Notes: generated from the letters alone by a model not told the origin. A stretch of 64,000 nt of DNA from Planctomycetota bacterium (GCA_044229935.1 JBGASC010000018.1:25496-89495); one strand, 5' to 3'. Shown: positions 9,307 through 50,976, numbered from the stretch's first letter. Made by a program: numbers and translations.

Positions 9307-9384
9307 GGCCCCATCGTCTAGCCAGGCCTAGGACACCAGGTTTTCATCCTGGCGACAGGGGTTCAAATCCCCTTGGGGTCACCA
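9307..9384 (+). tRNA. tRNA-Glu (anticodon UUC)
   Basis: Acceptor ggcccca/tggggtc, anticodon stem ccagg/cctgg with loop ttTTCat, T arm agggg-ttcaaat-cccct, and an encoded CCA end. Confidence 0.9.
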
Positions 9385-30808: not shown

Positions 30809-31393
30809 CTAGCGCGGCGCGCGCGCGCTGTCACCCGCGTCGAGCGCGAGGTTGAGCTCGAGCACGTTGACGCGCGGCTCGCCCAGGAAGCCGAGGGTGC
30901 GGCCCTCGACGTGCGCCTCGACCAGCGCGCGCAGCTCCTCGACGCGCATCCCGCGTGCCGCCGCGACGCGCGCGACCTGGAAGCGCGCGGCCGCGGGGCT
31001 GATGTGCGGGTCGAGTCCGCTGCCGGAGCTCGTGACGAGGTCGACCGGGATCGGCGCGTCGCCGCCCGGGGCGGCGCGCAGCTTCGCGATGCGCTCGGCC
31101 AGCGCCTGCGCCAGCGCGGGGTTGGTCGGTCCGAGGTTGGAGCCGCTCGAGGCCGAGGCGTTGTAGGCCGGACTGGTCGCCGAAGGCCGGCTCCAGAAGT
31201 ACTGCGGCGTGTCGAAGGCCTGGCCGATCAGCCGCGAGCCGCGCGTGCGGCCGCCCTCGACGATCAGGCTGCCGTTCGACTGCGCGGGGAAGCACAGCTG
31301 CGCCAGCGCCGTCACCAGGAGCGGGTAGACGATGCCGGTCACCAGGCTCAGCACGAGCAGCATGCGCGCGGCGACGGAGAGTTGCTTGAACAT
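30809..31393 (-). CDS. kdpC: K+-transporting ATPase subunit C
   Basis: ATG 31393 lies within the over-extended ORF 30809-33256. The product is 194 aa, with [18 protein letters not shown] typical of KdpC. Confidence 0.9.
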
Positions 31394-31404
31394 CGTGTGC
31401 TCCT

Positions 31405-33465: not shown

Positions 33466-33472
33466 GGCGACC

Positions 33473-35553: not shown

Positions 35554-38274
35554 ATGAGCGACACGCGCCCGAGCCCCGAGGACCTGCTGGCGCGCATCGC
35601 GCGCGAGAAGGAGGCGGCGCAGCGCGGACGGCTCAAGCTCTTCTTCGGCATGGCGCCGGGCGTGGGCAAGACCTACGCGATGCTCGAGGAGGCGCGCGCG
35701 CGCGCGGCGCGCGGCACCGACGTGCTCGTCGGCGTGGTGCTGACGCACGGCCGCGCGGAGACCGAGCGCCTCGTGCACGGGCTCGCGCGTCTCGCGCCGC
35801 GGCGCGTCGAGCACCGCGGCATCGTGCTCGACGAGTTCGACCTCGACGCGGCGCTGGCGCGCAGGCCGGGCCTGCTCCTGCTCGACGAGCTGGCGCACTC
35901 GAACGCGCCCGGCTCGCGCCACGCACGGCGCTGGCAGGACGTCGAGGAGCTGCTCGACGCCGGCATCGACGTCTACACCACGCTCAACGTGCAGCACGTC
36001 GAGAGCCTGAACGACGTGGTCGAGCGCGTCACCGGCGTGCGCGTGCAGGAGACCGTGCCCGACTCGATCCTCGAGCGCGCCGACGCGATCGAGCTGGTCG
36101 ACCTGCCGCCCGACGAGCTGCTCGCGCGCCTCTCCGAGGGCAAGGTCTACGTCCCCGCGCAGGCCGAGCGCGCGCTGCAGAGCTTCTTCCGCAAGGAGAA
36201 CCTGATCGCGCTGCGCGAGCTGGCGCTGCGCAAGACGGCCGAGCGCGTCGACCAGCAGGCGCGCGAGTACCGCCGCGCGCAGGGGCGCACCCAGGCGGGC
36301 GCCGCGCGCGAACGGCTGCTGATCGTGCTGCAGCCCGGCGCGCGCGCTCTCGACGTGCTGCGCGCCGGCCGGCGCCTGGCGGTCGAGCTGCGCGCGCCCT
36401 GGATCGCGCTCGTGCCCGAGTCCGAGCGCCTGGAGCGCCTCTCCGACGAGCGGCGCGAGGAGGTGGCCGAGCTGCTCGAGCTCGCGCGCCAGCTGGGCGG
36501 CGAGAGCCTGGTCGTCGGCAGCGAGCGCGCGGCCGAGCAGATCCTGCACGTCGCGCGCGATCGCGGCGTGACGCGCATCGTGGTCGGCAGCTCGCGTCCG
36601 CGCGGCCTGCTCGCGGCGCTCTTCCCGCCGCTCTCCGAGGAGCTCGTGCGCCGCGCCACGGACCTCGAGGTGCTCGTCACGCCCGGCATCCAGGACGACG
36701 ACGCGGGCGAGGGGCGCCGCGAGCCGCGGGCCGCGCTGGCGACGCCCACGCGCGAGTACCCGCTGGCGCTCGTGCCCGTGCTCGCGGCGGTGCTCGTCTG
36801 CACGGCGACGCGCGAGTCGCTGACGATCGCCGACCACGCGCTGATCCACCTCCTGGCGCTGCTGATCTCGGCCAGCGTCGCCGGGCGCGGGCCGGCCTTC
36901 GTCGCCACGCTGGCGAGCGTCGCGAGCTTCGACTTCTTCTCGATCCCGCCCTACTACACCTTCGCCGTCAGCGACCTGCACCACGTGCTGACCTTCGTCG
37001 TGATGCTCGTCGTCGGCTTCATCGCCAGCCAGCGCACGGTGGTGATCCGCGAGCAGGCGGCGGCCTCGCAGGAGCGCGAGCGGCGCACGGCGGCGCTCTA
37101 CGCGATGACGCGGGCCTTCGCGGTGGAAGACGATCCGCTGGCGATCGCGCGCTCGAGCGTCGAGCGCGTGCACGACCTGCTCGGGGCCGAGGCCTGCCTG
37201 TTCGTGCCCGATGCGGGCGGCGCGCTCCGCATCGCAGCGCAGACCGAGGGCTGGCGGGCCGAGGAGGAGCGCGAGCTCGCCGTCGCGCGCTGGGTCTTCG
37301 AGAACGACAAGCGCGCCGGCTTCGGCACCGACACGCTGCCTTCGGCGCGCGCTCTCTACCTTCCGATGAGCGTGCCGCGCGGCACGATCGCCGTGATGGG
37401 TGTCGGCCTGGGCGCGCTCGAACGCGAGCTGCGGCCCTCCGACCACCAGATGCTCGACACCTTCGTCGCGCAGGCGGCCCTGGCCCTGGAGCGCGTGCGC
37501 CTGCGCGCCGAGGCCGACGAGGCGCGCCACGCGGTCGAGGCCGAGCGCCTGCGCACCGACCTGCTCTCGAGCGTCAGCCACGACCTGCGCACGCCGCTCT
37601 CCTCGATCGCGGGCTCGGCCGGCGTGCTGCTCGCCGGCGACGCAGGCGGCGCGGGGCTGCGGCCCAGCGAGCGGCGCGAGCTGCTCGAGACGATCCAGTC
37701 GGAGAGCCAGCGCCTCTCCGAGCTGGTCTCGAACCTGCTCGACCTGACGCGGCTGGACTCGGGCGCGCTGCAGCCGCGGCGCGAGTGGTGCCCGGTCGAG
37801 GAGCTGGTGCACGGCGCGCTCGACCGCCTCGCGCCGCGCATCGCCGACCGTCCGCTGGAGCTCGGCCTGCCGCGCGAGATCCTGCAGGTGGACGTCGATC
37901 CGGTGCTGCTCGAGCAGGCGCTGGTGCACCTCGTCGAGAACGCGCTCAAGTACAGCCCGGCCGGCTCGCCGATCGAGATCCGCGCCAGCGGCAGTCCGGG
38001 CGAGGTGCTGCTCGAGGTCTCCGACCGCGGCCCGGGCATCCCGGCCGGCGAGGAGCAGCGCATCTTCGAGAAGTTCGTGCGCCTGCCCGACGGCCAGCGC
38101 GCCTCCGGTTCGGGCCTGGGCCTCTCGGTCTGCCGCGCGATCCTGCGCGCGCACGGCGGCAGCGTCGCGGCCGAGAACCGCCTCGGCGGGGGAGCGACGT
38201 TCCGCCTGCGCCTGCCGGTGACGCGCACGCCGCCGCCGCCGCCGCCGCGCATGCAGGGAGAGGGCGCGCCATGA
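35554..38274 (+). CDS. kdpD: osmosensitive K+ channel sensor histidine kinase KdpD
   Basis: 906 aa. It has an N-terminal KdpD domain with FFGMAPGVGKTYAML, a four-TM block, H-box SSVSHDLRTPLSSI, and a G-box GSGLGLSVCRAIL. Confidence 0.95.
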   Translation: MSDTRPSPEDLLARIAREKEAAQRGRLKLFFGMAPGVGKTYAMLEEARARAARGTDVLVGVVLTHGRAETERLVHGLARLAPRRVEHRGIVLDEFDLDAALARRPGLLLLDELAHSNAPGSRHARRWQDVEELLDAGIDVYTTLNVQHVESLNDVVERVTGVRVQETVPDSILERADAIELVDLPPDELLARLSEGKVYVPAQAERALQSFFRKENLIALRELALRKTAERVDQQAREYRRAQGRTQAGAARERLLIVLQPGARALDVLRAGRRLAVELRAPWIALVPESERLERLSDERREEVAELLELARQLGGESLVVGSERAAEQILHVARDRGVTRIVVGSSRPRGLLAALFPPLSEELVRRATDLEVLVTPGIQDDDAGEGRREPRAALATPTREYPLALVPVLAAVLVCTATRESLTIADHALIHLLALLISASVAGRGPAFVATLASVASFDFFSIPPYYTFAVSDLHHVLTFVVMLVVGFIASQRTVVIREQAAASQERERRTAALYAMTRAFAVEDDPLAIARSSVERVHDLLGAEACLFVPDAGGALRIAAQTEGWRAEEERELAVARWVFENDKRAGFGTDTLPSARALYLPMSVPRGTIAVMGVGLGALERELRPSDHQMLDTFVAQAALALERVRLRAEADEARHAVEAERLRTDLLSSVSHDLRTPLSSIAGSAGVLLAGDAGGAGLRPSERRELLETIQSESQRLSELVSNLLDLTRLDSGALQPRREWCPVEELVHGALDRLAPRIADRPLELGLPREILQVDVDPVLLEQALVHLVENALKYSPAGSPIEIRASGSPGEVLLEVSDRGPGIPAGEEQRIFEKFVRLPDGQRASGSGLGLSVCRAILRAHGGSVAAENRLGGGATFRLRLPVTRTPPPPPPRMQGEGAP

Positions 38275-39029
38275 CGGGCGACGCCGTGCGCGTGCTGGTG
38301 ATCGAGGACGACCCGCAGGTGCGGCGCTTCCTGCGCACCAGCCTCGCCGCGCACGGCTTCGTCGTGCACGAGGCCGCCGACGGCGCGACCGGGCTGCGCG
38401 AGGCGGTGCAGCACGTGCCCGAGATCGTGCTGCTGGACCTGGGCCTGCCGGATCTGGACGGGCTGGAGATCGTGCGGCGGCTGCGCACCTGGAGCCGCGT
38501 GCCGATCCTGATCCTCTCGGCCCGCGGCGAGGAGCGCCGCAAGGTCGAGGCGCTCGACGAGGGCGCTGACGACTACCTGACCAAGCCCTTCGGCTTCGCC
38601 GAGCTGCTCGCGCGCATGCGTGCGGCGCTGCGGCGCGCCGCCCGGCCCGACCCGGCCGCCGAGAGCGAGCTCGCACGCGGGCCGCTGCGGATCGACTTCG
38701 CGCGCAGGCGGGTCGAGCTCTCCGGGCGCGAGGTGCACCTGACGCCGATCGAGTTCCGCCTGCTGGCGGTCCTGGCGCGCCACGCGGGCCGCGTCGTGAC
38801 GCACCGGCAGCTCCTGACCGAGGTCTGGGGGCCGCAGTGCGCGGCCGAGACGCAGTACCTGCGCGTCTACATGACCCACCTGCGGCGCAAGCTCGAAGCC
38901 GACTCGGCGCTGGGCCGGATCTTCCACAACGAGGCCGGCGTCGGCTACCGTCTCGAGCTCGCGGGACCGGCGGAGGACGAGCGTCCCTCCGCGCCGCAGC
39001 CCCCAACTCCCAGGCCACCGCCCCCATGA
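38271..39029 (+). CDS. kdpE: OmpR-family response regulator KdpE
   Basis: ATG 38271 overlaps the kdpD TGA (cATGAc). Motifs VLVIEDD, LLDLGLPDLDG, KPF and the winged-helix end GVGYRL are present. Confidence 0.9.
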   Translation: MTGDAVRVLVIEDDPQVRRFLRTSLAAHGFVVHEAADGATGLREAVQHVPEIVLLDLGLPDLDGLEIVRRLRTWSRVPILILSARGEERRKVEALDEGADDYLTKPFGFAELLARMRAALRRAARPDPAAESELARGPLRIDFARRRVELSGREVHLTPIEFRLLAVLARHAGRVVTHRQLLTEVWGPQCAAETQYLRVYMTHLRRKLEADSALGRIFHNEAGVGYRLELAGPAEDERPSAPQPPTPRPPPP

Positions 39030-39565
39030 CGAAGTTCTCCCCCGGCGCCGAGGCGCGCTACACCAAGCAGGACTACTCCCCGAAGAAGCGCATCGAGGGC
39101 GTCGAGATCGTCGAGCTCAAGCGCTTCAACGACGACGGCGGCTCGATGACCGAGCTCGGACGGCTGGAGCAGGGCGTGCACAAGCAGCTGCCGGGCTTCG
39201 TCGTGCGCCAGATCAACTTCTCCGTGCTCGAGCCGCTGGCGATCAAGGCCTTCCACATGCACCGGCGCCAGACCGACGTGTGGTTCGTGCCGCCGGGCGA
39301 CAAGATCCTGCTCGTGCTCGCCGACGTGCGCGCGGGCTCGCCGACCGAGGGCCAGGTGATGCGCTTCGTGCTCGGCGACGGCAACTCGCGCCTGGTGCGC
39401 ATCCCGCCCGGCGTGGCGCACGGCTGCCGCAACCTGCGCCCGGCGACGACGAGCACGATCATCTACTTCGTCGACGTGCAGTTCACGGTCGACGAGCAGT
39501 GCGACGAGGGCCGCCTGCCCTGGGACCACTTCGGCGCGCAGCTGTGGGAGGTCGAGCGCGGCTGA
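39026..39565 (+). CDS. dTDP-4-dehydrorhamnose 3,5-epimerase-like cupin
   Basis: ATG 39026 overlaps the kdpE TGA. The product is 179 aa, with FNDDGGSMTEL, AFHMHRRQTDVWFV, VLADVRAGSPT and IPPGVAHG following the RmlC-like layout. Confidence 0.72.
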   Translation: MTKFSPGAEARYTKQDYSPKKRIEGVEIVELKRFNDDGGSMTELGRLEQGVHKQLPGFVVRQINFSVLEPLAIKAFHMHRRQTDVWFVPPGDKILLVLADVRAGSPTEGQVMRFVLGDGNSRLVRIPPGVAHGCRNLRPATTSTIIYFVDVQFTVDEQCDEGRLPWDHFGAQLWEVERG

Positions 39566-39583: not shown

Positions 39584-41587
39584 TCAGAGGAACTCGAGCA
39601 CGCCCTGGCCCGTCCCGCTGAAGAGCGTCTCGCTGGTCGCGCGCCAGGCGAGGTGCTCGCGGATCGGCGCGGCCCACGGCCGCTCCTCGCTCTCGCACAG
39701 CATGCCCAGCGCGACCGCGAGGTAGGCGCGCGAGCGCCGCGTCAGGCGCTCGTCGCGCAGCCCGGCCGTGATGCGCGGCAGCGCACGCGCGTCGCCGACC
39801 TCGCCCAGTGCCAGCGCGAACCAGCCGCGGCGCGGCACGGCCAGCGCGCGGTCGAGCCCGGCGCACAGGTCGTCGAGCACGCTCTTGTCGTCGACGAGCG
39901 CCAGCGCCACGGCGCAGGATTCCAGCGTGAAGGGCTGCTCGGCCGACGCGCGCAGCACCGCGTGCACGAGCGGCGCGCGCTCGCTGCAGCCGGCCAGTCC
40001 CAGTCCCAGCGCGCAGTAGCCGCGCGCGGCGTCGTCGCTCGTGCGCAGGAGCTCGTCCGCGAGGAGGGTGCAAGCCTCGTCGCCGCGCACGAGACCGAGC
40101 GCGAGGGCCGTCGCGCCACGCACGTCGGGGCTGGCATCGCGCGTCCACAGTGCGCGCAGCGCTTGCCCGCTCGCGGCGCGGACCTGCCCGCCGGCGCGGG
40201 CGAAGCGCGCCTCGAGCACGCCCAGCGCGAGCGCCGACCACGCGCGCGTGCGCGCGGCGGGCGCGGAGCTCGCCTCGACGAGGGCCGCGCGCAGGCGATC
40301 CAGCGTCGGATCGGGCACGTGCGTCGCCGCCGAGCGCCCCGCGCTCGCGAGCAGCGCCAGACGCGCGGCATCGGCGTCGGAACCCGAGCCCTTCTGCAGC
40401 AGCCCGAACAGCTGCGCGATCGCGGCCGCGTCGGCGGGCCGGCCGAAGTCCACCAGCTCGCCCAGGCCCAGGATGCAGGCCTCGCGCACCAGCGCGTCGA
40501 CGCCCTCGGTGGCCAGCAGCGCCGCCGCGTCCTGTGCGGCGCGCTCGCGCAACTGGTCCTGCGCCGTCGCGGCCAGGCGGGCCCGCGAAGCCCAGGCATG
40601 CGCACGCACCAGGCGCGCGGCCTCCGGACGCTCGGCGCAGCGCTCGAGGAACGCGAGCAGCGTTTGGCGCGAGATCCACGGCGCGCTCGTCGCGCCCAGG
40701 GGATCCGGATCCAGTGCGCACAGGCCCAGGGAGAGCAGGCAGGCCACCTGCGTGTCGAGCGGGGGCGCCGGCTCCGCCTCCAGCGCGTCGGTCAGCGCGC
40801 GTGCCGCGACCTGCCGCTCGCGGTTGGTTCGCGCCGCGTGCGCCAGCAGGCCCAGGCCGTACGCGGCGAGCGAGCGCATGCGCCAGGGGACTGCGTCGAG
40901 CGCGACCAGCCGGCGTCCCTCCGCCCCGTCGCGCACGAGCGCGCCCAGGAGCTCGAACGCGCTCGCGTCGGCCTGGATCGCCAGCGCGATCACCGCAGTC
41001 TCGGCCAGCCCGCGCACGGGCGAGGCCAGCGCGGCGCGCAGGATGCGGCGCGCGCGCTCGCTCGGCGTGCGGTCGGCGCGCGCGCCCAGGCGCGCGAGGC
41101 CCATCAGCGCGCCCGCGGCGAGCTCGCTGCTCGCGCCCTCGGCGAGCTGGGCGAGCACCGGCTCGACCTCCTCCTCGATCTCGCCCGGCAGCGGGCGCGG
41201 CGCGCGCGCGAACTGCGCCGCGAGCAGCGGGTCCTGCGCGAACTGTGGCGGGACGATCACGCCGGCGTGCACGTGGCGGCGCGGGTCGAGGAACTCCTGC
41301 TGGTGGAAGTGCCACCACACGTCCCAGTCCAGCTCGAGCGCGCCGGGCGTCTGGGGTTTCGCCGGCATGGCGGCCGCACCGCTGATCGCGCTCGCCGAGC
41401 CCGTCGCGGACGGCCCCTTGGCGTTCGGCGCCGGCGGCGTCGCCGCGACCTCCGCCGGGCGCGGGGGCATCACCGTGTCGGGCGGGCCGTGCTGTGCGCC
41501 GTTGTCGTAGCGAGTGCCCTGCGCGTGCGCTCTCGCCGTCACGTCGACGGCCAGACACGCGAGGAGGATCGTCAGGGTGCGGCGCAT
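39584..41587 (-). CDS. exported HEAT/ARM-like repeat protein, paralog 1 of 4 (most divergent)
   Basis: ATG 41587 lies within the over-extended ORF 39584-42595. The product is 667 aa, with signal MRRTLTILLACLAV, W block LDWDVWWHFHQQEFL and tail WRATSETLFSGTGQGVLEFL. Confidence 0.75.
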   Translation of the reverse strand: MRRTLTILLACLAVDVTARAHAQGTRYDNGAQHGPPDTVMPPRPAEVAATPPAPNAKGPSATGSASAISGAAAMPAKPQTPGALELDWDVWWHFHQQEFLDPRRHVHAGVIVPPQFAQDPLLAAQFARAPRPLPGEIEEEVEPVLAQLAEGASSELAAGALMGLARLGARADRTPSERARRILRAALASPVRGLAETAVIALAIQADASAFELLGALVRDGAEGRRLVALDAVPWRMRSLAAYGLGLLAHAARTNRERQVAARALTDALEAEPAPPLDTQVACLLSLGLCALDPDPLGATSAPWISRQTLLAFLERCAERPEAARLVRAHAWASRARLAATAQDQLRERAAQDAAALLATEGVDALVREACILGLGELVDFGRPADAAAIAQLFGLLQKGSGSDADAARLALLASAGRSAATHVPDPTLDRLRAALVEASSAPAARTRAWSALALGVLEARFARAGGQVRAASGQALRALWTRDASPDVRGATALALGLVRGDEACTLLADELLRTSDDAARGYCALGLGLAGCSERAPLVHAVLRASAEQPFTLESCAVALALVDDKSVLDDLCAGLDRALAVPRRGWFALALGEVGDARALPRITAGLRDERLTRRSRAYLAVALGMLCESEERPWAAPIREHLAWRATSETLFSGTGQGVLEFL

Positions 41588-41671
41588 GCGGGGCGCGGTA
41601 GTCCGGCGCGTGGCGCGCGTCACGCCGCGCCGGGGATTGCGCGCCGCGGCGGCCCAGGCTGCAATGGCCGG

Positions 41672-42604
41672 ATGGAGAGCCTCGACGAGGTCCGCATCCG
41701 GCCCGAGCTCGAGTCGCTGCGCCCGCTGGCGCAGAGCGTGCTGACGCGCCTGCGCGCGCCGGCCGACGACGACCGCTGGCACAAGCTGGCCGTGCTGCTC
41801 GCCAGCGTGTGCGCCTTCGTCGCCTTCGAGTGGGTGCGCGCGAACTTCTGGAGCGTGCTGGGGGTGCTGGCCGTGCTGTTCCTGCACGAGGCCGGACACT
41901 ACGTCGCGATGCGCGTGCTGGGCTACCGCAACCGGCGCATCTTCTTCATCCCGTTCTACGGCGGCGAGTCGGCCTGCGAGGACCACCACGCGCCGTCCGA
42001 GCAGCGCGTGCTGGTCGCGCTGGCCGGGCCGCTGCCGGGGATCGTGCTCGGGCTCGCCGCGGCCGCCGTGTTCCACTCGACGGCCGTCAAGCAGGTGTCC
42101 GAGCTGGTCGTGCTGGTCAACGTGTTCAACCTGCTGCCCTTCCTGCCGCTGGACGGCGGGCACATCTGGCACCAGCTCCTGTTCTGCCGCAGCCGCTTTC
42201 TCGAGACGGGCTTCCTCCTCTTCGGGATGCTGTTCCTGTGGGCGCTCGCGCTCGGCCGCGGCGAGTGGCTGCTCGGCGTGCTCGGGATCCTGATGGGCTG
42301 GAAGGCCTGGTACGCCTGGCGCGTCGACGCGATCAGCGACGAGCTGCGCGCCTCGGGCCAGCGCGAGCGGCTGCGCCACATCGACGAGCTGCGCGAGGCC
42401 GAGCTCCTGCCGCTGATCGTGCGCATCCGCGAGCAGTTCCCTCACGCGCGCGACGCCAAGGCGGTCGAGGCGCGCCTGCGCGACGTGCTCGCCTCGAGCT
42501 TCGCCGACCCGCCCGCGGTGCGCGCGCTGTGGTGGCTGGCGGGTGCCTACTTCGTCTCGATCGCGCTGGCCGCGATCGCGCTGCAGCAGGCGCACCGGCC
42601 CTGA
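41672..42604 (+). CDS. M50 family (site-2-protease type) intramembrane metalloprotease
   Basis: ATG 41672 lies within the over-extended ORF 39653-42604. HEAGH sits in a TM segment, followed by NLLPFLPLDGG. No PDZ-like segment was noticed. Confidence 0.8.
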   Translation: MESLDEVRIRPELESLRPLAQSVLTRLRAPADDDRWHKLAVLLASVCAFVAFEWVRANFWSVLGVLAVLFLHEAGHYVAMRVLGYRNRRIFFIPFYGGESACEDHHAPSEQRVLVALAGPLPGIVLGLAAAAVFHSTAVKQVSELVVLVNVFNLLPFLPLDGGHIWHQLLFCRSRFLETGFLLFGMLFLWALALGRGEWLLGVLGILMGWKAWYAWRVDAISDELRASGQRERLRHIDELREAELLPLIVRIREQFPHARDAKAVEARLRDVLASSFADPPAVRALWWLAGAYFVSIALAAIALQQAHRP

Positions 42605-42629
42605 GCCTCGCGCGAGCCGCAGCGCTCCC

Positions 42630-44681
42630 TCAGAGGATCTCGAGCACGCCGACGCCGGTGCCCGAGAGCAGCGTCGAGCTCGTCGCGCGCCAGTTGACCA
42701 GCGAGGTCAGCACGTGCGTCCAGGGCAGGGCGTCCTTGTCGCAGACGATGCCCAGCGCCGAGGCGACGCTGCCGCGCGCGGGGTCGGTGATGTCGTGGTC
42801 GCGCAGCATCGCCGCCAGCACGGGCACCGTGCGCGAGTCGCCGACCTTGCCCAGCGCCTGCGAGGTCCAGCTCTGGCTCGCCTGTCCCTGTGCCGCGCGC
42901 AGGGCCTGCGCCAGCTCGGGCGCGAGGCTCTTGTCGCCGAGCAGGGCGAGGCCGATCGCGCTCTGCAGGAGCAGGAAGGGACGGAAGCGCGCGTCGGCGG
43001 CGGCGGCGCGCAGCGCGGGGGCGAGCTCGGCGTTGCCCGCGAGCCCGACGCTCAGCGCGAGGTAGCCGCGCAGCACCTCGTCCCCGCCCTTGGACAGACG
43101 CTCGGCGAGATCCTTGGCCGCCTCGCCGTCGGCGCACAGGCCGAGCGAGATGGCGGCGGCGCAGACCTCGTCGGGACCCGAGGCCTCGGCCAGCGCCTTG
43201 CGCAGCGCCTCCCGCACCGTCGGCACGGGAGCGGCGTTCGCTTGCTGCAGCCGGAACTCCTCGACGCCCAGGGCCAGCATGGCCCAGCTGCGCGTGCGCG
43301 ACTTGCCGTGGCCGAGTTCCTCGAGCAGCGCTTCGCGCACCTCGCCCAGCGCCGTGCCGGGCTCGACGCCCGCGCCGCGGCGGGTGCTGGTCTCCGAGAG
43401 CGACATCAGCGCGAAGGCGCGCTCGGTGATCGAGCTGGCGATCAGCGTGCGGCGCAGCTCGCCGCGGATGCGCTTGTCGACCGCGTCCTGGTCGTCGTCG
43501 CCCAGCCGCCCCAGCCCGATCAGGCAGCTCTCGCGCACCGGCGCCTCGGTGCCGTCGCGGTGCAGGGCCGCGCAGAGCGCGTCGACCACGGCCTCCTTCG
43601 CCTCGAGGCTGGCATCGCTCGCCAGCGCCGCGAGCGAGGTGGCCGCGTGCGCGCGCAGCACCGCGCGGGTTTCGCGCACCTCGAAGAGCTTGAGCAGGAA
43701 GCGCAGCTCGGTCTGGCGCGAGATCCAGGCCGCGCTGGAGCTCTCCTCGCGCTCGAGCTCGAGCGGTGTCAGGCCCAGCGCGATCACGCAGGCCACCTGC
43801 GTGTCGGCCGGCACGCCCTCGCTCAGCGAGAGCACGTCGGTCAGCGCGCGCGCGATCATCTGCCGCGCGCGGTTCGAGCGCAGGTGCTGCGCCAGGATGC
43901 CCAGGCCGTAGGCGGCGAAGGAGCGCGTGCGCATCGAGACCTCGCGCTGCCCCGTCGCGTTGCGGCCGCGCTCGTCGTCGCGCAGGATGCCCTCGAGCAG
44001 GGGGGCATTCTCCTCGGCACCGAGGATGCCCAGCGCGAGCGCGGCGGTCTCGACGATCTCCTGGTTGGGGTCGCGCAGCCGCGCGATCATCTGCGGCGCG
44101 AAGCGCTCGGCGGCCGCGACGCCGGCGAGCTCGCCCACGCGCGCCTCGGCCAGCAGCGCGCTGGTGATCAGCTCGTTGTTCGATTCGCGCGCGAGCACCT
44201 CGCGCAGCGCGGGCGCGGCCTCCTCCACGAGCTGCTTGGGCGTGGGGCGGAAGCTCGACACCAGCTGCGGGCCGAGGAGGTCCCCGCGCGAGAGGCTCTC
44301 GGGGGAGTGCGGCGCCTCGTACACGCGCTGCTTGAGGCGCAGGAACTCCTCCTTGTGGAAGTGCCACCAGATGTCCCAGGTCGGATCGAGGTAGCGATCC
44401 ACGCCGCTGCCCGTGCCCGTCTGCGGACCGCCGGCGTTGGGTCCACCCGAGCGCGGACCCGCACCGGTGGGCGCGCCCGCGCCGCCGGAGGTCGGCGTGC
44501 TCGGGGAGGGCACGGCCGGCGCCGGGCTCGGCGTCGAGGGCCCCGAGGGCCGGCCGGTCGTGTCGCCCGGTCCGCCGTAGGAGCCCGGACCGACGGGCTG
44601 GAGCGTCGGCGGGTGCGGAACCGGGTTGCCGTGCAGGGCGGGCGCCGCGGGTGCGAGCGTGAGTGCGAGAGCGAGAATCAT
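42630..44681 (-). CDS. exported HEAT/ARM-like repeat protein, paralog 2 of 4
   Basis: 683 aa with a P/G/S-rich linker, W block PTWDIWWHFHKEEFLRLK and tail NWRATSSTLLSGTGVGVLEIL. Confidence 0.8.
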   Translation of the reverse strand: MILALALTLAPAAPALHGNPVPHPPTLQPVGPGSYGGPGDTTGRPSGPSTPSPAPAVPSPSTPTSGGAGAPTGAGPRSGGPNAGGPQTGTGSGVDRYLDPTWDIWWHFHKEEFLRLKQRVYEAPHSPESLSRGDLLGPQLVSSFRPTPKQLVEEAAPALREVLARESNNELITSALLAEARVGELAGVAAAERFAPQMIARLRDPNQEIVETAALALGILGAEENAPLLEGILRDDERGRNATGQREVSMRTRSFAAYGLGILAQHLRSNRARQMIARALTDVLSLSEGVPADTQVACVIALGLTPLELEREESSSAAWISRQTELRFLLKLFEVRETRAVLRAHAATSLAALASDASLEAKEAVVDALCAALHRDGTEAPVRESCLIGLGRLGDDDQDAVDKRIRGELRRTLIASSITERAFALMSLSETSTRRGAGVEPGTALGEVREALLEELGHGKSRTRSWAMLALGVEEFRLQQANAAPVPTVREALRKALAEASGPDEVCAAAISLGLCADGEAAKDLAERLSKGGDEVLRGYLALSVGLAGNAELAPALRAAAADARFRPFLLLQSAIGLALLGDKSLAPELAQALRAAQGQASQSWTSQALGKVGDSRTVPVLAAMLRDHDITDPARGSVASALGIVCDKDALPWTHVLTSLVNWRATSSTLLSGTGVGVLEIL

Positions 44682-44751
44682 GAGGTCACCTTCCGCGAGC
44701 GCCGCTTCCTAGCCTGCCCTCGAGCACACGTCAGCCGGGCCAGTGTCGGGT

Positions 44752-46881
44752 TCACAAGATCTCCAGCACACCCGTTCCGTCGCCGCTGAGCAAGGTCGAA
44801 GTGACCGCGCGCCAGTTGAACGAGCTCCCGATGGGGTAGTTCCAGCTGACGTCGTCCTTGTCGCACACGATCCCCAGCGCCAGCTCGACGTAGCCGCGCG
44901 AGCGCGGGTTGCGGTGGACGTCGCGCGCCAGCCCCAGCAGGCCCGGGACGCTGCTCGCGTCGCCGACGAAGCCCAGCGCCTGCGCCAGCCAGCCCTGGCT
45001 CGCGGTGCCCTGGGCCGTCTCCAGCTCGGCCAGCAGCTCCTGCACGTGCGCCTTCTCGCCCAGCAGCGTCAGCGCGATCGCGGTCTGCTGCAGCAGGAAG
45101 GGCCGGAACGCCGAGCGGCCGACCAGGGCGCGCAGCGCGGGTGCGTGGCGCGTGTCGTGCAGCAGGCCCAGCGACAGCGCGACGTACGCGCGCGGCACCT
45201 CATCGGTGGCCTTCTCCAGGCGCGCGAGGAGCACCGCACCTGCCGCCTCGTCGCGGCACAGCCCGAGCGCGATCGCGCAGGCGGTCTGCTCCTCGGGGCC
45301 CGCGGCCTCCTCGAACACGCGCCGCAGCGCGGCACCGACGGCGGGCGGCGTGCTCGCTCCGCGCCGCTGCAGGCGGAACTCGAGCACGCCCAGCGCCAGC
45401 GCGGACCACGAACGCATCCGGCCGTTGCCCTGCGCGAGCTCCTCGAGCAGGCGCGTGCGCACGGCGGCGACGGTCGCCTGGCACGAGGCTTCGCGGCCGG
45501 GCCGCGCGGCGACCTCGGAGAGTGCCATCAGCGCGAAGCAGCGCTCCGCCGTCGAGCCGCCGGCGAGCGCGCGCAGCAGCTCGGTGCGCAGCTCGCGGTC
45601 CAGATCGTCCTCGTCGTCGTCGCCGAGCGTGCCCAGCGCGATCAGCGCGCACTCGCGTACCAGGCCCTCGCTGCGCCCGCGGCGCAGGGCGTCGAGCGCA
45701 CAGTCGGCGACCGCCTGGCGCAGCTCGGGACCCGCGCCGCGCTGCAGGAGTGCCAACGCGTCGAGCGCGTGCGCGCGCAGCAGCGTGCGCGCCTCGCGGT
45801 CGCGCGCGAGATCGAGCAGGAACGCGATCTGGGTCTGGCGCGAGATCCAGGGCGCGCTCTGGCTGGGGAGCGGCTCGGGATCGAGCGGCGTCAGGCCCAG
45901 CGCGATCACGCTGGCCGCCTGCGTGTCGGCGGCGACGCCCTCGCGCGCCGCGATCGCCGCGCAGAGGGTGCGCGCGACCAGCTGCCGCACGCGGTTGTTG
46001 TGCGTGCGCCGGCCGATCAGGCCCAGGCCGTAGGCGGCGAACGAGCGCACGCGCAGCGGGACGCTGCGCGCCCCGGCCGCGACGCGACCGTCGGGCTCGT
46101 CGAGCACCAGGCTGCCGAGCAGCGGCACGCTGGCTTCGTCGCCGAGCACGCCCAGGGCGAGGGCCGCGCGCTCGCCGATCTCCTGGTTGGGGTCGGCGAT
46201 CAGGCGCGCCAGGCGCGGGGCCGAGCGCGCGCCCGCTTCCGCGCCGGGAACCTCGCCGATGCGCGCGAGCGCCAGCTCCGCACCGGCGACGACATCGTTG
46301 CCGTGCTCGCTGGCGAGCAGCTGCTGCAGCGCGGGCACCACCTGCGTGTGGATCTCCTGCGCGCTCGGGCGCAGGCTGCGGTTGGCGAGCAGGCGCGCGA
46401 GATCGTCGTCGGGTTCCAGGCCGGCCGGGGTCTCCAGGCCTGCGCCGACGCTCTGCTTGAGCTCGAGGAACTCCTCGCGGTGCAGCAGCCACCACACGTC
46501 CCAGGTGGGCTCGAGCATCGCCGCCAGACCGCCGCCGGTGCTCGGTCCGCCCTGGCTCGCGCCGGGGACCTTCGGCAGCGTGCCTCCGGTCGCCGGACCG
46601 CTGCCGTTCGAGGCCGGTCCGCCGGTCGCCGGACCGTTGGCCGGGGCGGGCGTTCCCTCCGCGGGCGGCCCGCCGGACCTGCCGCCGCCGCGGGGTCCGG
46701 GCGGAACCGGCGAGGCGGGCGCCGGCGTGCTCGGGCCGCCGGAGGTCGGGTTGCCGGCGCCGGTGGAGCTTCCCGCTCCCGTGCTGCCCGAGCCGTGCAG
46801 CGGCGGCGTCCAGCCTCCGCCTCCGCCGTCGACCAGCAGCGGGAGGCACAGCACCAGGCTCAGCGAGTGGATGTTCAGCAT
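44752..46881 (-). CDS. exported HEAT/ARM-like repeat protein, paralog 3 of 4
   Basis: ATG 46881 is preceded by aaggagagagag. The product is 709 aa, with W block PTWDVWWLLHREEFLELK and tail NWRAVTSTLLSGDGTGVLEIL. Confidence 0.8.
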   Translation of the reverse strand: MLNIHSLSLVLCLPLLVDGGGGGWTPPLHGSGSTGAGSSTGAGNPTSGGPSTPAPASPVPPGPRGGGRSGGPPAEGTPAPANGPATGGPASNGSGPATGGTLPKVPGASQGGPSTGGGLAAMLEPTWDVWWLLHREEFLELKQSVGAGLETPAGLEPDDDLARLLANRSLRPSAQEIHTQVVPALQQLLASEHGNDVVAGAELALARIGEVPGAEAGARSAPRLARLIADPNQEIGERAALALGVLGDEASVPLLGSLVLDEPDGRVAAGARSVPLRVRSFAAYGLGLIGRRTHNNRVRQLVARTLCAAIAAREGVAADTQAASVIALGLTPLDPEPLPSQSAPWISRQTQIAFLLDLARDREARTLLRAHALDALALLQRGAGPELRQAVADCALDALRRGRSEGLVRECALIALGTLGDDDEDDLDRELRTELLRALAGGSTAERCFALMALSEVAARPGREASCQATVAAVRTRLLEELAQGNGRMRSWSALALGVLEFRLQRRGASTPPAVGAALRRVFEEAAGPEEQTACAIALGLCRDEAAGAVLLARLEKATDEVPRAYVALSLGLLHDTRHAPALRALVGRSAFRPFLLQQTAIALTLLGEKAHVQELLAELETAQGTASQGWLAQALGFVGDASSVPGLLGLARDVHRNPRSRGYVELALGIVCDKDDVSWNYPIGSSFNWRAVTSTLLSGDGTGVLEIL

Positions 46882-46943
46882 CTCTCTCTCCTTCTTGCGT
46901 TGCAGGCGGGGGCGAGCGCCGCGAGGTCGCGGCCTTCCCGCAT

Positions 46944-48935
46944 TCAGAAGATCTCCAGGAGGCCCTGGCCGTCGCCGCCCAAGAGCGTCGGCGTGACGGC
47001 CCGGTAGTTCCGGTCGCGCGCCAGGGGTACGTACCAGGCGCGATCCCCGCGCTCGGCCAGCATGCCCAGCGCGATCACCGCCGCCGCGCGCGCGCCGCTC
47101 GAGGAGCTCTCGCTCTTCGCCAGCGCCAACAGCGGTTCGAGCGCACGCGCATCGGCGACCAGGCCCAGCGCGTGCGCGAGCGAGGCCTGCAGCGCGAGGC
47201 TCTGCGAGTCGCGCAGCGCCTCGAGCAGCTCCGACTGCAGCTCGTGGTCGCCGAGCAGCGCGAGCCCCTCGGCTGCCGGCTCGAGCACCCAGGGCCGGAA
47301 GCGCGCGCCCTTGGCGATGCTGCGCAGCTGCGGGATCGCCTCGGTCGTGCCGAGCATGCCCAGCGCCAGCGCCAGGAAGCCCTGCGCCTCGGTCGGGCCG
47401 CTCGCGGCGAGCTTCTCGCGCAGGAGCGGCGGCGCGGCTTCGGCGCGCGCCAGGGCCAGTGCGATCGCGCCGGCACCGAGCTCTTCGGGGCTGTTCTGCG
47501 CGCGCGTCCAGTCGAGCAGCGCGCTGCGGGCGAGATCGGACGGCGCGCCGCCGCCCTCGCGCACGCGGAACTCCTGCACGCCCAGCGCCAGCGCGGCCCA
47601 GGGCTTGAGCCGGCTGCGCCCGCGCAGGAGCTCGTTGACCAGCGCGTTGCGGCACTGCGCGCGGCCCTCCTCGGCGCGCTCGCCGTGGCCCGCATGCGCG
47701 CCGGCCTCGCCCAGCGCGATCGCGGCGAAGAAGCGCGTCGACTGGTCCGCATCGTCGAGCTCGCGCACCAGCGCCGCGCGCAGCTCGCCGTCGAGCTCGT
47801 CGGCATCGGCATCGGCCAGGAGCCCGGCTGCCTGCACGGCGCACTGCACGACCTCGTTCTCCAGCGCGCGTTCGCGGCGCAAGAGCACGAGGAGCTCGCG
47901 TCGCACCTCGTCGCGCAGGATCGCCGGAGCGTCGAGCACCAGGCGCGTCAGCGTCGAGAGCGCGTGCGCGCGCGCCAGCGCCCGGCGCTGCGGGTCGCGC
48001 TCGATCTCGAGCAGCGCGTGCACCAGCGACTGGCGCGAGACCCAGGCTGCGCTCTGCGCCTCGCCGCGCTCGAGGTCGAGCCGGTCGAGCGAGAGCGCCA
48101 CGACCGTCGCGACCTCCAGGTCCACCGGAGGCGGGCGCGCGCCGGCATCCAGGAGCGGCAGCAGCGCGCGCGCGACCAGCTGGCGCACGCGGTTGTTGCG
48201 CGCCCCGTCGGCGAGCAGGCCCAGGCCGTAGGCCGCGAAGGCGCGCGTGCGCGTCGAGACCGAGCGCCCGGCGAGCAGCGCGCGGCCGCGCTCGCCGTCG
48301 GCGCACAGGTCTTCGAGCGTCGCGAGCGCGCTCTCGTCGCCGAGCACGCCCAGTGCCAGCGCGGCGGTCTCGCTGACCTCCTGCGACGCGTCGGTCAATC
48401 GGGCGCGCAGGAGCGGCACGAGCGAGGCCGAGGCCTCGGCCGGCTGCGGATCGCCGACGCGGGCGAGCGCCAGCAGCGCTGCGGTGGCGAGCTCGTTCGA
48501 GCGTTCGTCACGCAGGATGCGCGCCAGCGCCGGGACGAGCGTGTCGTGCACCTGCGCGCGCGAGGGGCGCATCGCCAGCAGCGTGCGCAGCACGTTGGCC
48601 GGTCCATCGCTGCCCGTGCGCACCGACGCAGCCTCGATCGAGTTGCGCAGGTCGAGGAAACCGTCCTGGTTGAAGTGCCACCAGTCGCGCCAGGAGAGCA
48701 GGTCGCCCAGCGGGTCTCCGCCGGTCTTGGGGTTCGCGCCCGGCGCACCGCCGCTCATCGGTCCCGGACCGCTGGGGGCGCCCGTGGTGGGGTTGCCCGG
48801 GTTGCCGGGGATCGGCAGTCCCCAGCCCACGGGCGTGTACGCACCGCCGTGCGCGGAGAGCGGCAAGGTGGCGCCGACGAGTGCGGCGAGTGCGAGCAGG
48901 AGACGAGCGATGCTGGAACCCAATCCTCCCTCCAA
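46944..48935 (-). CDS. exported HEAT/ARM-like repeat protein, paralog 4 of 4
   Basis: 663 aa with W block SWRDWWHFNQDGFLDLR and tail NYRAVTPTLLGGDGQGLLEIF. Confidence 0.8.
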   Translation of the reverse strand: MEGGLGSSIARLLLALAALVGATLPLSAHGGAYTPVGWGLPIPGNPGNPTTGAPSGPGPMSGGAPGANPKTGGDPLGDLLSWRDWWHFNQDGFLDLRNSIEAASVRTGSDGPANVLRTLLAMRPSRAQVHDTLVPALARILRDERSNELATAALLALARVGDPQPAEASASLVPLLRARLTDASQEVSETAALALGVLGDESALATLEDLCADGERGRALLAGRSVSTRTRAFAAYGLGLLADGARNNRVRQLVARALLPLLDAGARPPPVDLEVATVVALSLDRLDLERGEAQSAAWVSRQSLVHALLEIERDPQRRALARAHALSTLTRLVLDAPAILRDEVRRELLVLLRRERALENEVVQCAVQAAGLLADADADELDGELRAALVRELDDADQSTRFFAAIALGEAGAHAGHGERAEEGRAQCRNALVNELLRGRSRLKPWAALALGVQEFRVREGGGAPSDLARSALLDWTRAQNSPEELGAGAIALALARAEAAPPLLREKLAASGPTEAQGFLALALGMLGTTEAIPQLRSIAKGARFRPWVLEPAAEGLALLGDHELQSELLEALRDSQSLALQASLAHALGLVADARALEPLLALAKSESSSSGARAAAVIALGMLAERGDRAWYVPLARDRNYRAVTPTLLGGDGQGLLEIF

Positions 48936-49014
48936 TGCGGGGTCGAGGCTGCCAGGCCAGCGCGCTCACTATACGGCCTCGCGCGGTCGGTTGCCGAGCA
49001 CCTCCTGGAATGCG

Positions 49015-49071: not shown

Positions 49072-50181
49072 TCAGGGCCAGATCACCGAGACCGCGTTCG
49101 ACACGTTGAACGTGTTGCCCGGGGGCGCCGCGCAGAAGCTCGGCGAGGCATCGCGGTAGTAGGCCTGGTAGTAGCGCGTGGCCCCGGCCGGGATCACGTC
49201 GCCCAGCGCGGCCGACTGCGCGCGCACGCCCAGGTCGCCGACCGCCGGCGCGGAGACCGCACCGCCGACCGCGCTCTTGGCGTAGAGGCGCTTGAGGTTG
49301 CCGCCCGTGCAGCGCACGCCGTCACCGAAGATCGAGCCCGGCGCGGTGTTGACGTCGCCCTGCAGGAAGATCGTCAGCGCGGTGGGCAACTCGCCCGTGA
49401 CGCTGAGCACCAGCGCGTCGGGGTTGAGGTTGCCGGAGCCGGCGAGCTGCGCGCCGCCGGTGCTGGCCGAGTTCTCGCAGCCGCGGCCCGCAGTACCGAG
49501 GTTGCCGCAGGGGCAGAGCGTCGAGCTGCCGTCGCCGAAGCAGAAGGTGGCGATCGGTCCACCGCCGGCCTGCTTGATCAGCTGGAAGCCGTTGACGCAG
49601 CCCAGGCCGACCGAGGACTGCACGTTGACCACGATCGTGCCGTTGCCGATCGTGACGTGGTGCAGCGCGTAGGTCAGTCCCTGCGCGTGCGTGCCGGCCC
49701 AGGCTCCGCCGACCAGCTGCGTGCCTTCGACCGCGCCCTGGACCGCCACGCCCGTGCGGTAGGTGACGTCGTCGGGCGCCCAGCCGTACGTGTACACGCT
49801 GTAGGTGCCGTTGACGAGGTTGCTGAACGTCCAGGTGGCGGTGCCCGTCGAGAGCGGCGGCGAATTGATGTCCATCGCGTCGTCGAGCAGGTTCTGGTCG
49901 TCGCCGGTCGTGGCCGCGTTGTTGAACCCGAAGTCGCCCAGTCCGCCCGAGGGCAGCAGCGTCGCCGAGAGCGTCGTGCCTGCGAGGTCCTTGAGCGCGA
50001 CGGGCGAGGTGGCCGCGGCGGACACGCGCGTCCACACTCCGGCCTGGGAAGCAGCGGCGGCGTACGCAGCGCTGGGGATCGAGGAATTGGAGCTGCCGAC
50101 GTCGACGTTCAGGCTCTGCGCAAAGGTCAGCGGAGCCGAGGCGAGGAGGCAGGCCAGCGGGAGGAGGGGGCGTGTGATCAT
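49072..50181 (-). CDS. secreted protein: beta-rich N-domain plus six-Cys C-terminal domain
   Basis: Signal MITRPLLPLACLLASAPLTFA. The C-terminal ~165 aa, starting at FCFGDGSSTLCPCGN, are shared with the next gene. Confidence 0.75.
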   Translation of the reverse strand: MITRPLLPLACLLASAPLTFAQSLNVDVGSSNSSIPSAAYAAAASQAGVWTRVSAAATSPVALKDLAGTTLSATLLPSGGLGDFGFNNAATTGDDQNLLDDAMDINSPPLSTGTATWTFSNLVNGTYSVYTYGWAPDDVTYRTGVAVQGAVEGTQLVGGAWAGTHAQGLTYALHHVTIGNGTIVVNVQSSVGLGCVNGFQLIKQAGGGPIATFCFGDGSSTLCPCGNLGTAGRGCENSASTGGAQLAGSGNLNPDALVLSVTGELPTALTIFLQGDVNTAPGSIFGDGVRCTGGNLKRLYAKSAVGGAVSAPAVGDLGVRAQSAALGDVIPAGATRYYQAYYRDASPSFCAAPPGNTFNVSNAVSVIWP

Positions 50182-50301: not shown

Positions 50302-50862
50302 TCACGGGGTCCAGCGCACGCTCAGCCCGCTCGAGAAGTTGTAGGCCTCGCTCATGCAGAAGCTGGCGTTGTTGCGGTACCAGCCCTGGTAGAAGCGCAG
50401 GCCGCCCGTTGCGGGCAGGCTCCCGGCGACCGAGATGCGCGGATCCCCGGCGACGCCGTAGCCGAACGAGGCACTGCCGCCCGCCGCGCTGCGCACGCCC
50501 ATGCGGATCAGGCCGCTGTTGACGCACAAGAGGCCGTCCCCGAGCGCGGTGCCCAGTCCGGCGTTCTGCGCCAGCATGCCCTGGAAGAAGATGATCGTGG
50601 TCGTCGTCGGCAGGTGGTTCGCGCTCAAGGTCAGCGTGTCGTTCGCGACCGAGATGCTGCCGCTGCCGGCGAGGTGCGAGCCCTGGCCGAACGAGTTGAT
50701 GCAGCCCTGCTGCAGGCCGGGCGGCGAGTTGTTGCCGCACGGACAGGGCGTGCCCGCGCCGTCGCCGAAGCAGAACGAGTTGATCGACTGCGCGTCGCTG
50801 CGCGGAGCGCACAGCACGGACGCGCCGAAGGCCAGCAGCACGCGCGGGACGGTTGAGTTCAT
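50302..50862 (-). CDS. secreted protein consisting of the six-Cys domain only
   Basis: ATG 50862 (M15 of the track ORF; alternative start 50904) gives the signal MNSTVPRVLLAFGASVLCA. The domain starts at FCFGDGAGTPCPCGN and ends at GLSVRWTP. Confidence 0.72.
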   Translation of the reverse strand: MNSTVPRVLLAFGASVLCAPRSDAQSINSFCFGDGAGTPCPCGNNSPPGLQQGCINSFGQGSHLAGSGSISVANDTLTLSANHLPTTTTIIFFQGMLAQNAGLGTALGDGLLCVNSGLIRMGVRSAAGGSASFGYGVAGDPRISVAGSLPATGGLRFYQGWYRNNASFCMSEAYNFSSGLSVRWTP

Positions 50863-50976
50863 CGCAGGAAGCCTCGCACTCCTGCAGGCCGAGGATTGCA
50901 GCATCCTGCTGCTCGGCTCGGAGGGTCGCGATGCTAGGCCGAGGACGCGATTCCGGCAATGTGCCGCGTGGCGGAT

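Follow-up and report, generated by a model that had tools for sequence, protein, structure and literature searches.

A tandem array of predicted exported HEAT-repeat paralogs in a Planctomycetota bacterium and the family to which it belongs

Repeat proteins of the PBS-lyase type (Pfam HEAT_2, PF13646, and HEAT_PBS, PF03130) include CpcE, CpcF and NblB as well as the alphaRep proteins, which are consensus designs from PBS-type HEAT repeats, and are built from a repeat of about 31 residues with the consensus R..AA.ALG..GD. In the longer solenoid of importin-alpha, the protein's own N-terminal peptide docks in the repeat groove. In the bacterial envelope, LpoA/LpoB, the Pro-rich spacers of TonB type and the TPR scaffolds AlgK and BamD provide examples of an exported module on a disordered Pro-rich spacer of defined reach. 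Planctomycete-type cells have an enlarged, invaginated periplasm, and the membrane-coat-like proteins of the Planctomycetes-Verrucomicrobia-Chlamydiae (PVC) group consist of a beta-propeller followed by an alpha-solenoid. In this work we focused on four paralogous genes, named A, B, C and D, which encode large HEAT-repeat proteins with signal-like N-termini and lie in a stretch of 64,000 nucleotides from a Planctomycetota bacterium (GCA_044229935.1, JBGASC010000018.1:25496-89495; this whole stretch is called the window below).

The HEAT solenoid fold is known already, uncharacterised families of repeat proteins are common, and an array of such genes alone is unsurprising. The novelty lies in a precise, testable definition of a large and apparently lineage-restricted family that is conserved as far as both mature termini, with a tether of constrained length, an N-terminal peptide seen nowhere else in the data, and arrays in which the signatures of the two ends decay jointly. 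These features have led us to a tentative model in which the N-terminal peptide would act as a tethered ligand.

The four paralogs and their wider family

Translation and frame analysis gave four intact open reading frames (ORFs) on the minus strand (Table 1), at the coordinates claimed in a preliminary description made from the sequence of the window. The G+C content of the window varies between 67 and 77%, and it contains many long spurious ORFs. In the frames of A-D the G+C content at third codon positions (GC3) is 0.93-0.97 in DNA of 73% G+C, which identifies them as real coding frames, in agreement with the frame plot; long ORFs antisense to or overlapping the array were rejected as high-GC artefacts. 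Pairwise BLASTP comparisons gave 34-50% identity over at least 600 residues, with E values between 8e-53 and 9e-173, and the four sequences align colinearly from the Trp block, described below, through the last residue, so that the description of A-D as diverged, colinear paralogs on one strand was correct. No fifth copy was found by tblastn within the 64-kb window. The share of the window given for the array, about 15%, applies to the span including the intervening gene (14.6%), the four genes alone occupying 12.8%. Of the two TTG codons considered as the start of D, the one at 48923 is more likely than the one at 48935, because the Shine-Dalgarno sequence GGAGGGAGGA lies directly 5' of it and the resulting 659 residues are the length of the ortholog P0122; the remaining D orthologs have 660-664 residues.

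A word-indexed search with B returned 155 relatives, nearly all of 640-740 residues. A HMMER scan with a profile of the four sequences, on which A-D all score 570-758 bits across positions 1-692 (length class about 650-730 residues), matched 1,355 representatives of clusters at 50% identity end to end at E<=1e-30, nearly all of about 690 residues. The signatures had been regarded as private to the four genes, a view that does not survive the finding of at least 1,355 clusters with the family profile. All named sources are metagenome-assembled genomes (MAGs) of Planctomycetota or Engelhardtia mirabilis, a member of the Saltatorellus group, and the family appears, from the sequences retrieved, to be restricted to one lineage of Planctomycetota. 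Full-text searches of the literature on planctomycete HEAT-repeat signal-peptide proteins and on Engelhardtia gave nothing about the family.

The order of the parts is fixed throughout the family: signal peptide, HGG peptide, tether, Trp block, about 15 PBS-type HEAT repeats and an extended tail. Statistics on the end signatures were obtained by inspection of 261 sequences. The hydrophobic N-terminus is followed by the motif H-G-G-x-Y-R-G-P-G-D-x-V-P-P, the His of which has a median position of 25. The residue preceding it (-1) is A, G or S in 142 of 161 cases, residue -3 is A, S, L, V, T or G, and the motif is thereby the probable mature N-terminus. No sequence of an independent 55-member alignment deviates at the H or the first G, and the second G, the Y and the following G and P are conserved to at least 90%. 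The tether consists of Pro, Gly, Ser and Thr to a median of 78%, and the distance from the His to the Trp block has a median of 75 residues with an interquartile range of only 72-77. The Trp block, with the family consensus DLTxWxFWWEFNKxPYLxLK, comprises two helices, and its pattern is present in 137 family genes and was not detected at any other place in 1.38 Mb of loci. The tail, NYRAxTxTL....GxG[IV]L[DEN][IL]L-COOH, is conserved through the final residue, with G at -6 in 243 and L at -4 in 240 of 250 sequences, D, E or N at -3, I or L at -2, and L at -1 in 199 of 250. Conservation of the body (B numbering) is highest at 201-260 and 561-683 and lowest in the middle of the solenoid.

These features are unevenly kept in the window. 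All four genes have the Trp block, W..WW.[FLH][NH] plus an amphipathic helix, directly before the first HEAT repeat, and all four C-termini (GVLEFL in A, GVLEIL in B and C, GLLEIF in D) fit G-[IVL]-L-[DEN]-[ILF]-[LF]-COOH. The Trp blocks and tails are present as quoted in the preliminary description, except that the tail of A, AWRATSETLFSGTGQGVLEFL, departs from the pattern proposed there at three positions. The signal-like N-termini and the Pro/Gly/Ser/Thr-rich low-complexity linker reported there were also recovered, the linker being disordered in the structural model. It is longest in C, with 98 residues from His to Trp block. The H-G-G-x-[YFW] sequence stands at the predicted cleavage site of D (between SA and HGGAY), B and C retaining only HG and A only H. 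Remnants of the motif can still be recognised as HG...YGGPGDT after the signal-like residues 1-16 of B and as HAQG...HGPPDTVMPP after the signal MRRTLTILLACLAVDVTARA of A. Since D is the only gene in the window to keep HGGxYRGPGDxVPP, the motif had been missed in the preliminary description.

A DNA pattern scan of metagenomes for HGGxYRGPGDxVPP gave 123 matches on 120 contigs; a Trp block follows in 107, the contig ends too early in 16, and no match lacks it. The motif was not found outside family genes in the 1.38 Mb of loci. A general sorting signal common to other protein families was rejected as an explanation of the motif, given that 107 of 107 assessable metagenome matches precede a Trp block. 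Among array members, 105 have both motif and tail, 2 the motif only, 18 the tail only and 16 neither, which corresponds to an odds ratio of 47, uncorrected for kinship. Loss of the motif climbs with the position in the array: 71 of 80 first copies keep it, against 7 of 14 third copies.

Fold of the proteins and history of the array

The AlphaFold2 model of B, computed from a 56-sequence alignment, is an alpha-solenoid with a predicted local distance difference test (pLDDT) score of 87 and a predicted template modelling (pTM) score of 0.85. It contains 32 helices (31 without that of the signal peptide) and zero strands, and 542 of its 683 residues reach a pLDDT of at least 90. It has a disordered segment (residues 10-91), two confident Trp-block helices (102-114 and 116-121) and about 15 subsequent helix pairs; the last 24 residues lack regular secondary structure at a pLDDT of about 91. 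The model of P0059, a canonical member, is also a solenoid (pLDDT 85), with two isolated bridge residues as its only beta structure. Like the B model, it has about 90 disordered residues at the N-terminus, and both its Trp-block helices and its tail are confident. In these models the Trp block and the tail probably cap opposite ends of the solenoid.

Placing the sequence on the helices of B clarified the nature of the conserved islands of the preliminary description (QEIVETAALALGILG, RTRSFAAYGLGIL, DTQVACVIALGL, VRESCLIGLGRLGD, RTRSWAMLALGV and ARGSVASALGIVCD), each of which falls at the start of the second helix of a repeat. They are not distinct features: each repeat shows the PBS-HEAT consensus R..AA.ALG..GD once, and RSFAAYGLG, DTQVA..ALGL, VRES..I.LG.LGDDD and RSW..LALGV are instances of it.

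Searches against named families reached the same fold class. Pfam returned HEAT_2 (PF13646) only, with 31.8, 63.0, 55.3 and 64.7 bits for A, B, C and D (cut-off 27.7), and no NCBIfam score of A-D came near any cut-off. The best scores against the CpcE, CpcF and NblB equivalogs were 9-20 bits, far below their cut-offs of 220-330, the weak matches to CpcE and NblB having E values from 4e-4 to 0.3. B (22.2 bits) and D (11.0 bits) also remained below the cut-off of 75 of the DVU0298 family (NF045662). The sole PADLOC match, of D to HEAT-ARM_XIII (E 4.9e-5), covers 75 residues of a 1,972-position model and does not place D among defence proteins. The best matches of the family profile to PDB sequences were alphaRep proteins, with E values down to 1.8e-64. 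Foldseek comparison of the B model with the PDB gave generic solenoids only (PP2A-A, importin-alpha, Rpn1/Rpn2), with template modelling (TM) scores of 0.22-0.43 and 10-16% identity. By these comparisons A-D belong to the PBS-type HEAT superfamily, outside every characterised family there. Only a generic HEAT-like assignment had been thought possible, with the Trp block and tail in no named family, and the Pfam, NCBIfam, PADLOC, PDB-sequence and Foldseek searches bear this out.

Related loci (L numbers) carry from one to six copies per genome; in 41 of 80 such loci 2-6 family genes lie on the same strand, and Engelhardtia has four. In L002 and L088 the array is flanked as in the window, by nadA together with a beta-helix gene at one end and by kdpDE-kdpFABC with a cupin gene at the other, but it comprises only a D ortholog and a B ortholog. 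In L086, the B of which is 74% identical, the order is D-B-M50-A, M50 being an intramembrane metalloprotease gene that also separates A and B in the window. C is absent from L086, L002 and L088. B orthologs on other contigs are 59-74% identical, and A is 62% identical to its ortholog fragment in L086.

In a bootstrapped neighbour-joining (NJ) tree the window clade received 96% support. D groups with L002_1, L088_1 and L086_1, B with its orthologs in three other genomes, and A with the L086 fragment, all at 100%. A and C fall inside a B-type clade of A, B and C (99%) and outside the B orthologs, a position of C as their sister having only 55% support. From synteny in L002, L088 and L086 together with this tree, D and B are the ancestral pair in the sub-lineage of the window, to which C and the module of M50 protease and A, well diverged themselves, were added later. 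The 100% groupings of D and B with orthologs in three other genomes each, and of A in one, agree with the proposal of old duplications rather than recent amplification. The preliminary description had named two outcomes that would contradict it, namely a characterised family for the full-length proteins or an array and neighbourhood conserved in no relative, and neither was observed.

Duplications have also occurred independently elsewhere, each group being monophyletic at 100%: copies 1-3 of L003, copies 1-2 of L068 and copies 3-4 of L023. Strict positional orthology across all arrays, hinted at by an NJ tree without support values, was rejected in view of deep nodes with 3-44% bootstrap and of many lineage-specific duplications, and positional orthology is claimed for close relatives only. 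Because deep nodes are not resolved and arrays grow by their own duplications, we do not propose a universal, fixed set of subunits. In two loci (L005, 6644-8707, and L026, 4677-6832) a pair of adjacent ORFs, which jointly span the full profile, takes the place of one family gene, a split that probably stems from a frameshift or an assembly error, or possibly marks a pseudogene.

D, C and B are probably co-transcribed, as judged from the gaps of 62 and 70 bp between them and from one promoter-like site upstream of D (Table 1). This sigma-70-like site, a consensus match only, is the sole one found between 39000 and 51200, where shuffled sequences gave an expectation of 0.0. A forms a separate transcription unit, divergent from the M50 gene with 84 bp between the two.

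A proposed tethered ligand and other explanations

The family pattern of a basic and then hydrophobic N-terminus resembles a signal peptide and suggests that the protein body lies outside the cytoplasm, with the segment either cleaved or retained as an anchor. In the model that we prefer, family proteins would reach the periplasm through Sec, with cleavage immediately in front of the His, and the free N-terminal peptide, represented in isolated form by HGGTYRGPGDTVPP, would be a tethered ligand docking on a family member, its own or a neighbouring subunit, probably near the C-terminal end. A site on a family member would best explain three properties of the peptide: its restriction to the family, its attachment by a spacer of constant reach, and its co-variation with the other end of the protein. 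The maxima of conservation within the N-terminal third of the body and within its C-terminal fifth were counted in the same sense. Since AlphaFold2 did not dock the peptide in cis, we prefer binding in trans between co-expressed paralogs, which is possible rather than probable. The paralogs would then build mixed periplasmic scaffold assemblies, in which copies devoid of both peptide and tail would be non-propagating or specialised subunits. That co-expressed paralogs are subunits of a mixed scaffold, docking via their tethered peptides, we consider plausible, although somewhat short of probable.

Several observations weigh against this model. The motif stays at pLDDT <50 in the models of B and P0059, which give no support to docking in cis, and the correlated loss of motif and tail was not corrected for kinship. 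Three of the four window copies lack HGGxY, and a basic n-region is missing from the signal peptides of B and C. The capping of the solenoid by the Trp block and tail was deduced from model confidence values and secondary structure. The ratio of nonsynonymous to synonymous substitution rates is 0.39-0.62 between orthologs and up to 0.93 overall, values that are unreliable as a test of selection at 97% GC3. Finally, independent lineage-specific duplications fit birth-and-death diversification at least as well as a fixed hetero-complex. A rival explanation is that each copy is an independent periplasmic or surface receptor or adaptor, whose central repeats bind a ligand of its own (polymer, protein or phage) and whose ends only anchor or fold the protein, with birth-and-death of copies and no hetero-oligomer. 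Repeated duplications within lineages, a copy number of one to six between related genomes, the low conservation of the mid-solenoid and the lack of a fixed partner gene adjoining arrays across lineages would all be expected, but the joint loss of peptide and tail and the conserved tether length suggest a mechanism shared by the two ends that goes beyond anchoring, and the named members, from Planctomycetota MAGs or the free-living isolate Engelhardtia, offer no evident setting of host interaction. We regard such diversifying binders as rather unlikely, yet worth keeping in mind.

The remaining explanations each account for one feature of the family. In the prion octarepeat HGGGW, Cu(II) is coordinated by the imidazole of the His together with the amides of both glycines after it (PMC6721516), and by analogy a mature H-G-G-x-Y might form a Cu(II) site from the His imidazole, the next two Gly amide nitrogens and possibly the free amino group, on a solenoid serving as carrier or sensor. 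The invariance of the H and first G in the 55-member alignment, the second G and Y being kept to at least 90%, and the position of the His at the predicted cleavage site agree with copper handling, as does a NosD-like gene nearby by its family name only. The resemblance is however purely one of motif, the remainder RGPGDxVPP has no metal-binding rationale, no locus examined contains linked copper-resistance or copper-enzyme genes, and the site is missing from most late array copies and from three of the four window copies, which makes this explanation quite unlikely. Maturation by the M50 protease, whose substrate would be the signal or anchor segment either of A or of family proteins in general, is very unlikely. 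The gene does lie inside the array, shares an 84-bp divergent region with A and is kept as a module with A in the relative with the 74%-identical B, but it adjoins family genes only in the window (L001 is its own sequence) and in the near-identical contigs L086 and L087, being absent from the other 80-odd loci and from the ancestral D and B pair. M50 genes of the rseP type that occur about 10 kb away from canonical arrays are part of the dxr-rseP housekeeping pair. A family-wide partnership with this protease was thus rejected, and at the family level the refutation of the maturation hypothesis is largely in hand. Least credible of all is that the proteins are cytoplasmic enzymes or chaperones of the PBS-lyase type, like CpcE, CpcF or NblB, with a hydrophobic N-terminus that plays no role. 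The repeats are indeed PBS-HEAT and match CpcE and NblB weakly in NCBIfam, but these scores are 10-20 bits against cut-offs of 300-330, the signal peptide and cleavage-site pattern are conserved family-wide, there is no phycobiliprotein context, and the proteins are about three times as long as CpcE or NblB.

A more far-reaching form of the tethered-ligand model is unlikely but would have larger consequences. The family proteins might form a self-assembling periplasmic skeleton specific to the Saltatorellus/Engelhardtia branch, in which the peptide, possibly metal-loaded, would span a tether of about 60 residues and dock at the tail end of the next solenoid, giving head-to-tail chains or lattices with copies that have lost both ends as chain terminators. 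If true, such a polymer, housed in a periplasm that is enlarged and highly curved, would represent an envelope cytoskeleton of a kind new to bacteria. The group of Engelhardtia has been described as shape-shifting, with elaborate periplasmic invaginations (bioRxiv 10.1101/817700), in a report that does not mention the family proteins, and a link between the two is speculation. An abundant scaffold family that is specific to this group, and apparently exported, is a reasonable candidate for a part in envelope architecture, and E. mirabilis, the only cultured member found, is the organism where the idea can be tested.

Neighbouring genes and comparison with known systems

The features of the array and the genes around it are listed in Table 1. 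The M50 protein belongs to the M50 site-2 proteases, with HEAGH and NLLPFLPLDGG motifs and a PF02163 score of 59 bits (cut-off 27.2). It has no PDZ or CBS domains and matches weakly a daptide-biosynthesis HExxH protease in NCBIfam (E 3e-4). Its gene converges on B with a gap of 25 bp.

Upstream of D, a GC-rich hairpin without T-run lies 3' of the stop codon of the next gene. Two genes on this side encode signal-peptide proteins with a common Cys-rich C-terminal domain of about 160 residues (FCFGDG..T.CPCGN...GC.NS...FGDG.RC...YYQ.WYRD..FC..FN.SN..V.W.P), for which there were zero matches in Pfam, NCBIfam or PADLOC. L033, L069, L071, L086 and L088 also carry related copies, four of them in L069, at most a few kb away from HEAT genes of the family. 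Co-occurrence of the family with M50 and six-Cys genes had been raised in the preliminary description; for M50 it extends to near relatives only, and for the six-Cys genes it is patchy, covering these five other loci, and may reflect lineage synteny. The product of the beta-helix/NosD-like gene is rich in W, G, V and K. Beta-helix, NosD or PA14 genes lie beside nadA at the matching position in L002 and L088. On the other side of the array, the cupin gene abuts A, and the flank of cupin and kdp genes is kept in L002, L088 and L011.

Canonical arrays have a different neighbourhood. A convergent block 3' of them consists of a fused MFS/spermidine synthase (NF037959, 125 bits), an esterase resembling polyhydroxybutyrate (PHB) depolymerases, a TPR protein and purM, followed by dxr-rseP. 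It was found in L003 (14749-19105), L083, L084 and about 39 of 79 genome loci, often with sdhCAB preceding the array, and is kept between Engelhardtia and lineages only about 30% identical to B; the array of the window sits elsewhere. Rfam and tRNA scans detected no RNA element in or beside the array, and across the window, the regions upstream of kdp and of the array included, the Rfam scan gave neither a riboswitch nor any other Rfam family. Three tRNA genes are the sole RNA genes of the window.

Table 1. Coordinates of the array, its sequence signatures and neighbouring genes in the window
Feature	Position	Strand	Remarks
Paralog D	46944..48935	-	663 residues from TTG 48935, 659 from TTG 48923; first gene of likely D-C-B transcription unit
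D Trp block	48642-48704	-	
D tail	46947-47018	-	RDRNYRAVTPTLLGGDGQGLLEIF
D HGGAY	48837-48851	-	family N-terminal H-G-G-x-Y; sole copy in the window keeping it
Paralog C	44752..46881	-	709 residues, B-type; 62 bp downstream of D
C Trp block	46453-46515	-	
C tail	44755-44826	-	
Paralog B	42630..44681	-	683 residues; 70 bp downstream of C
B Trp block	44328-44390	-	
B tail	42633-42704	-	SLVNWRATSSTLLSGTGVGVLEIL
Paralog A	39584..41587	-	667 residues; most diverged copy
A Trp block	41276-41338	-	
A tail	39587-39658	-	ends LEFL
Sigma-70-like promoter match	48968..48997	-	TCGGCA, 18-nt spacer, TATAGT; 33 bp 5' of annotated start of D
M50-family intramembrane metalloprotease gene	41672..42604	+	310 residues; between A and B, not a family member
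Six-Cys gene	49072-50181	-	369 residues
Six-Cys gene	50302-50904	-	200 residues
Beta-helix/NosD-like gene	52407-54209	+	stretch of G+C 0.67; GC skew +0.37 over 52-54 kb
Small RmlC-like cupin gene	39026-39565		
kdpD and kdpE	35554-39029		
kdpABC	30809-35188		
Deoxyhypusine-synthase-like gene	28683-30017		
tRNA-Lys(ttt), tRNA-Lys(ctt), tRNA-Glu(ttc)	within 1054-1277 and 9307-9384	+	

The family can thus be set beside the systems named at the outset. It shares its repeat with the PBS-lyase-type HEAT proteins, from which it differs in its apparent export, its number of about 15 repeats, a rigid plan of about 690 residues, and a private peptide, tether, Trp block and tail. The PP2A A subunit, importin-alpha and Rpn1/Rpn2 are likewise long HEAT/ARM alpha-solenoids and gave the best Foldseek matches, but they are cytoplasmic or nuclear, and their TM scores denote the fold class only. 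Docking of its own N-terminal peptide by importin-alpha is nevertheless the type of mechanism that we envisage for the tethered ligand. In contrast to LpoA/LpoB, TonB-type proteins, AlgK and BamD, to which no sequence or profile relationship was found, the window family has no lipobox or transmembrane anchor, and its tether ends in a free conserved peptide. It does not belong to the PVC membrane-coat-like proteins, since the models of B and P0059 contain no beta-propeller and the repeat is of another type. With the prion HGGGW repeat it has in common, as a sequence pattern only, an H-G-G-x-aromatic start of a flexible Gly-rich region; the family motif is single, stands at the predicted mature N-terminus rather than in an internal repeat, and is unrelated in its remaining residues.

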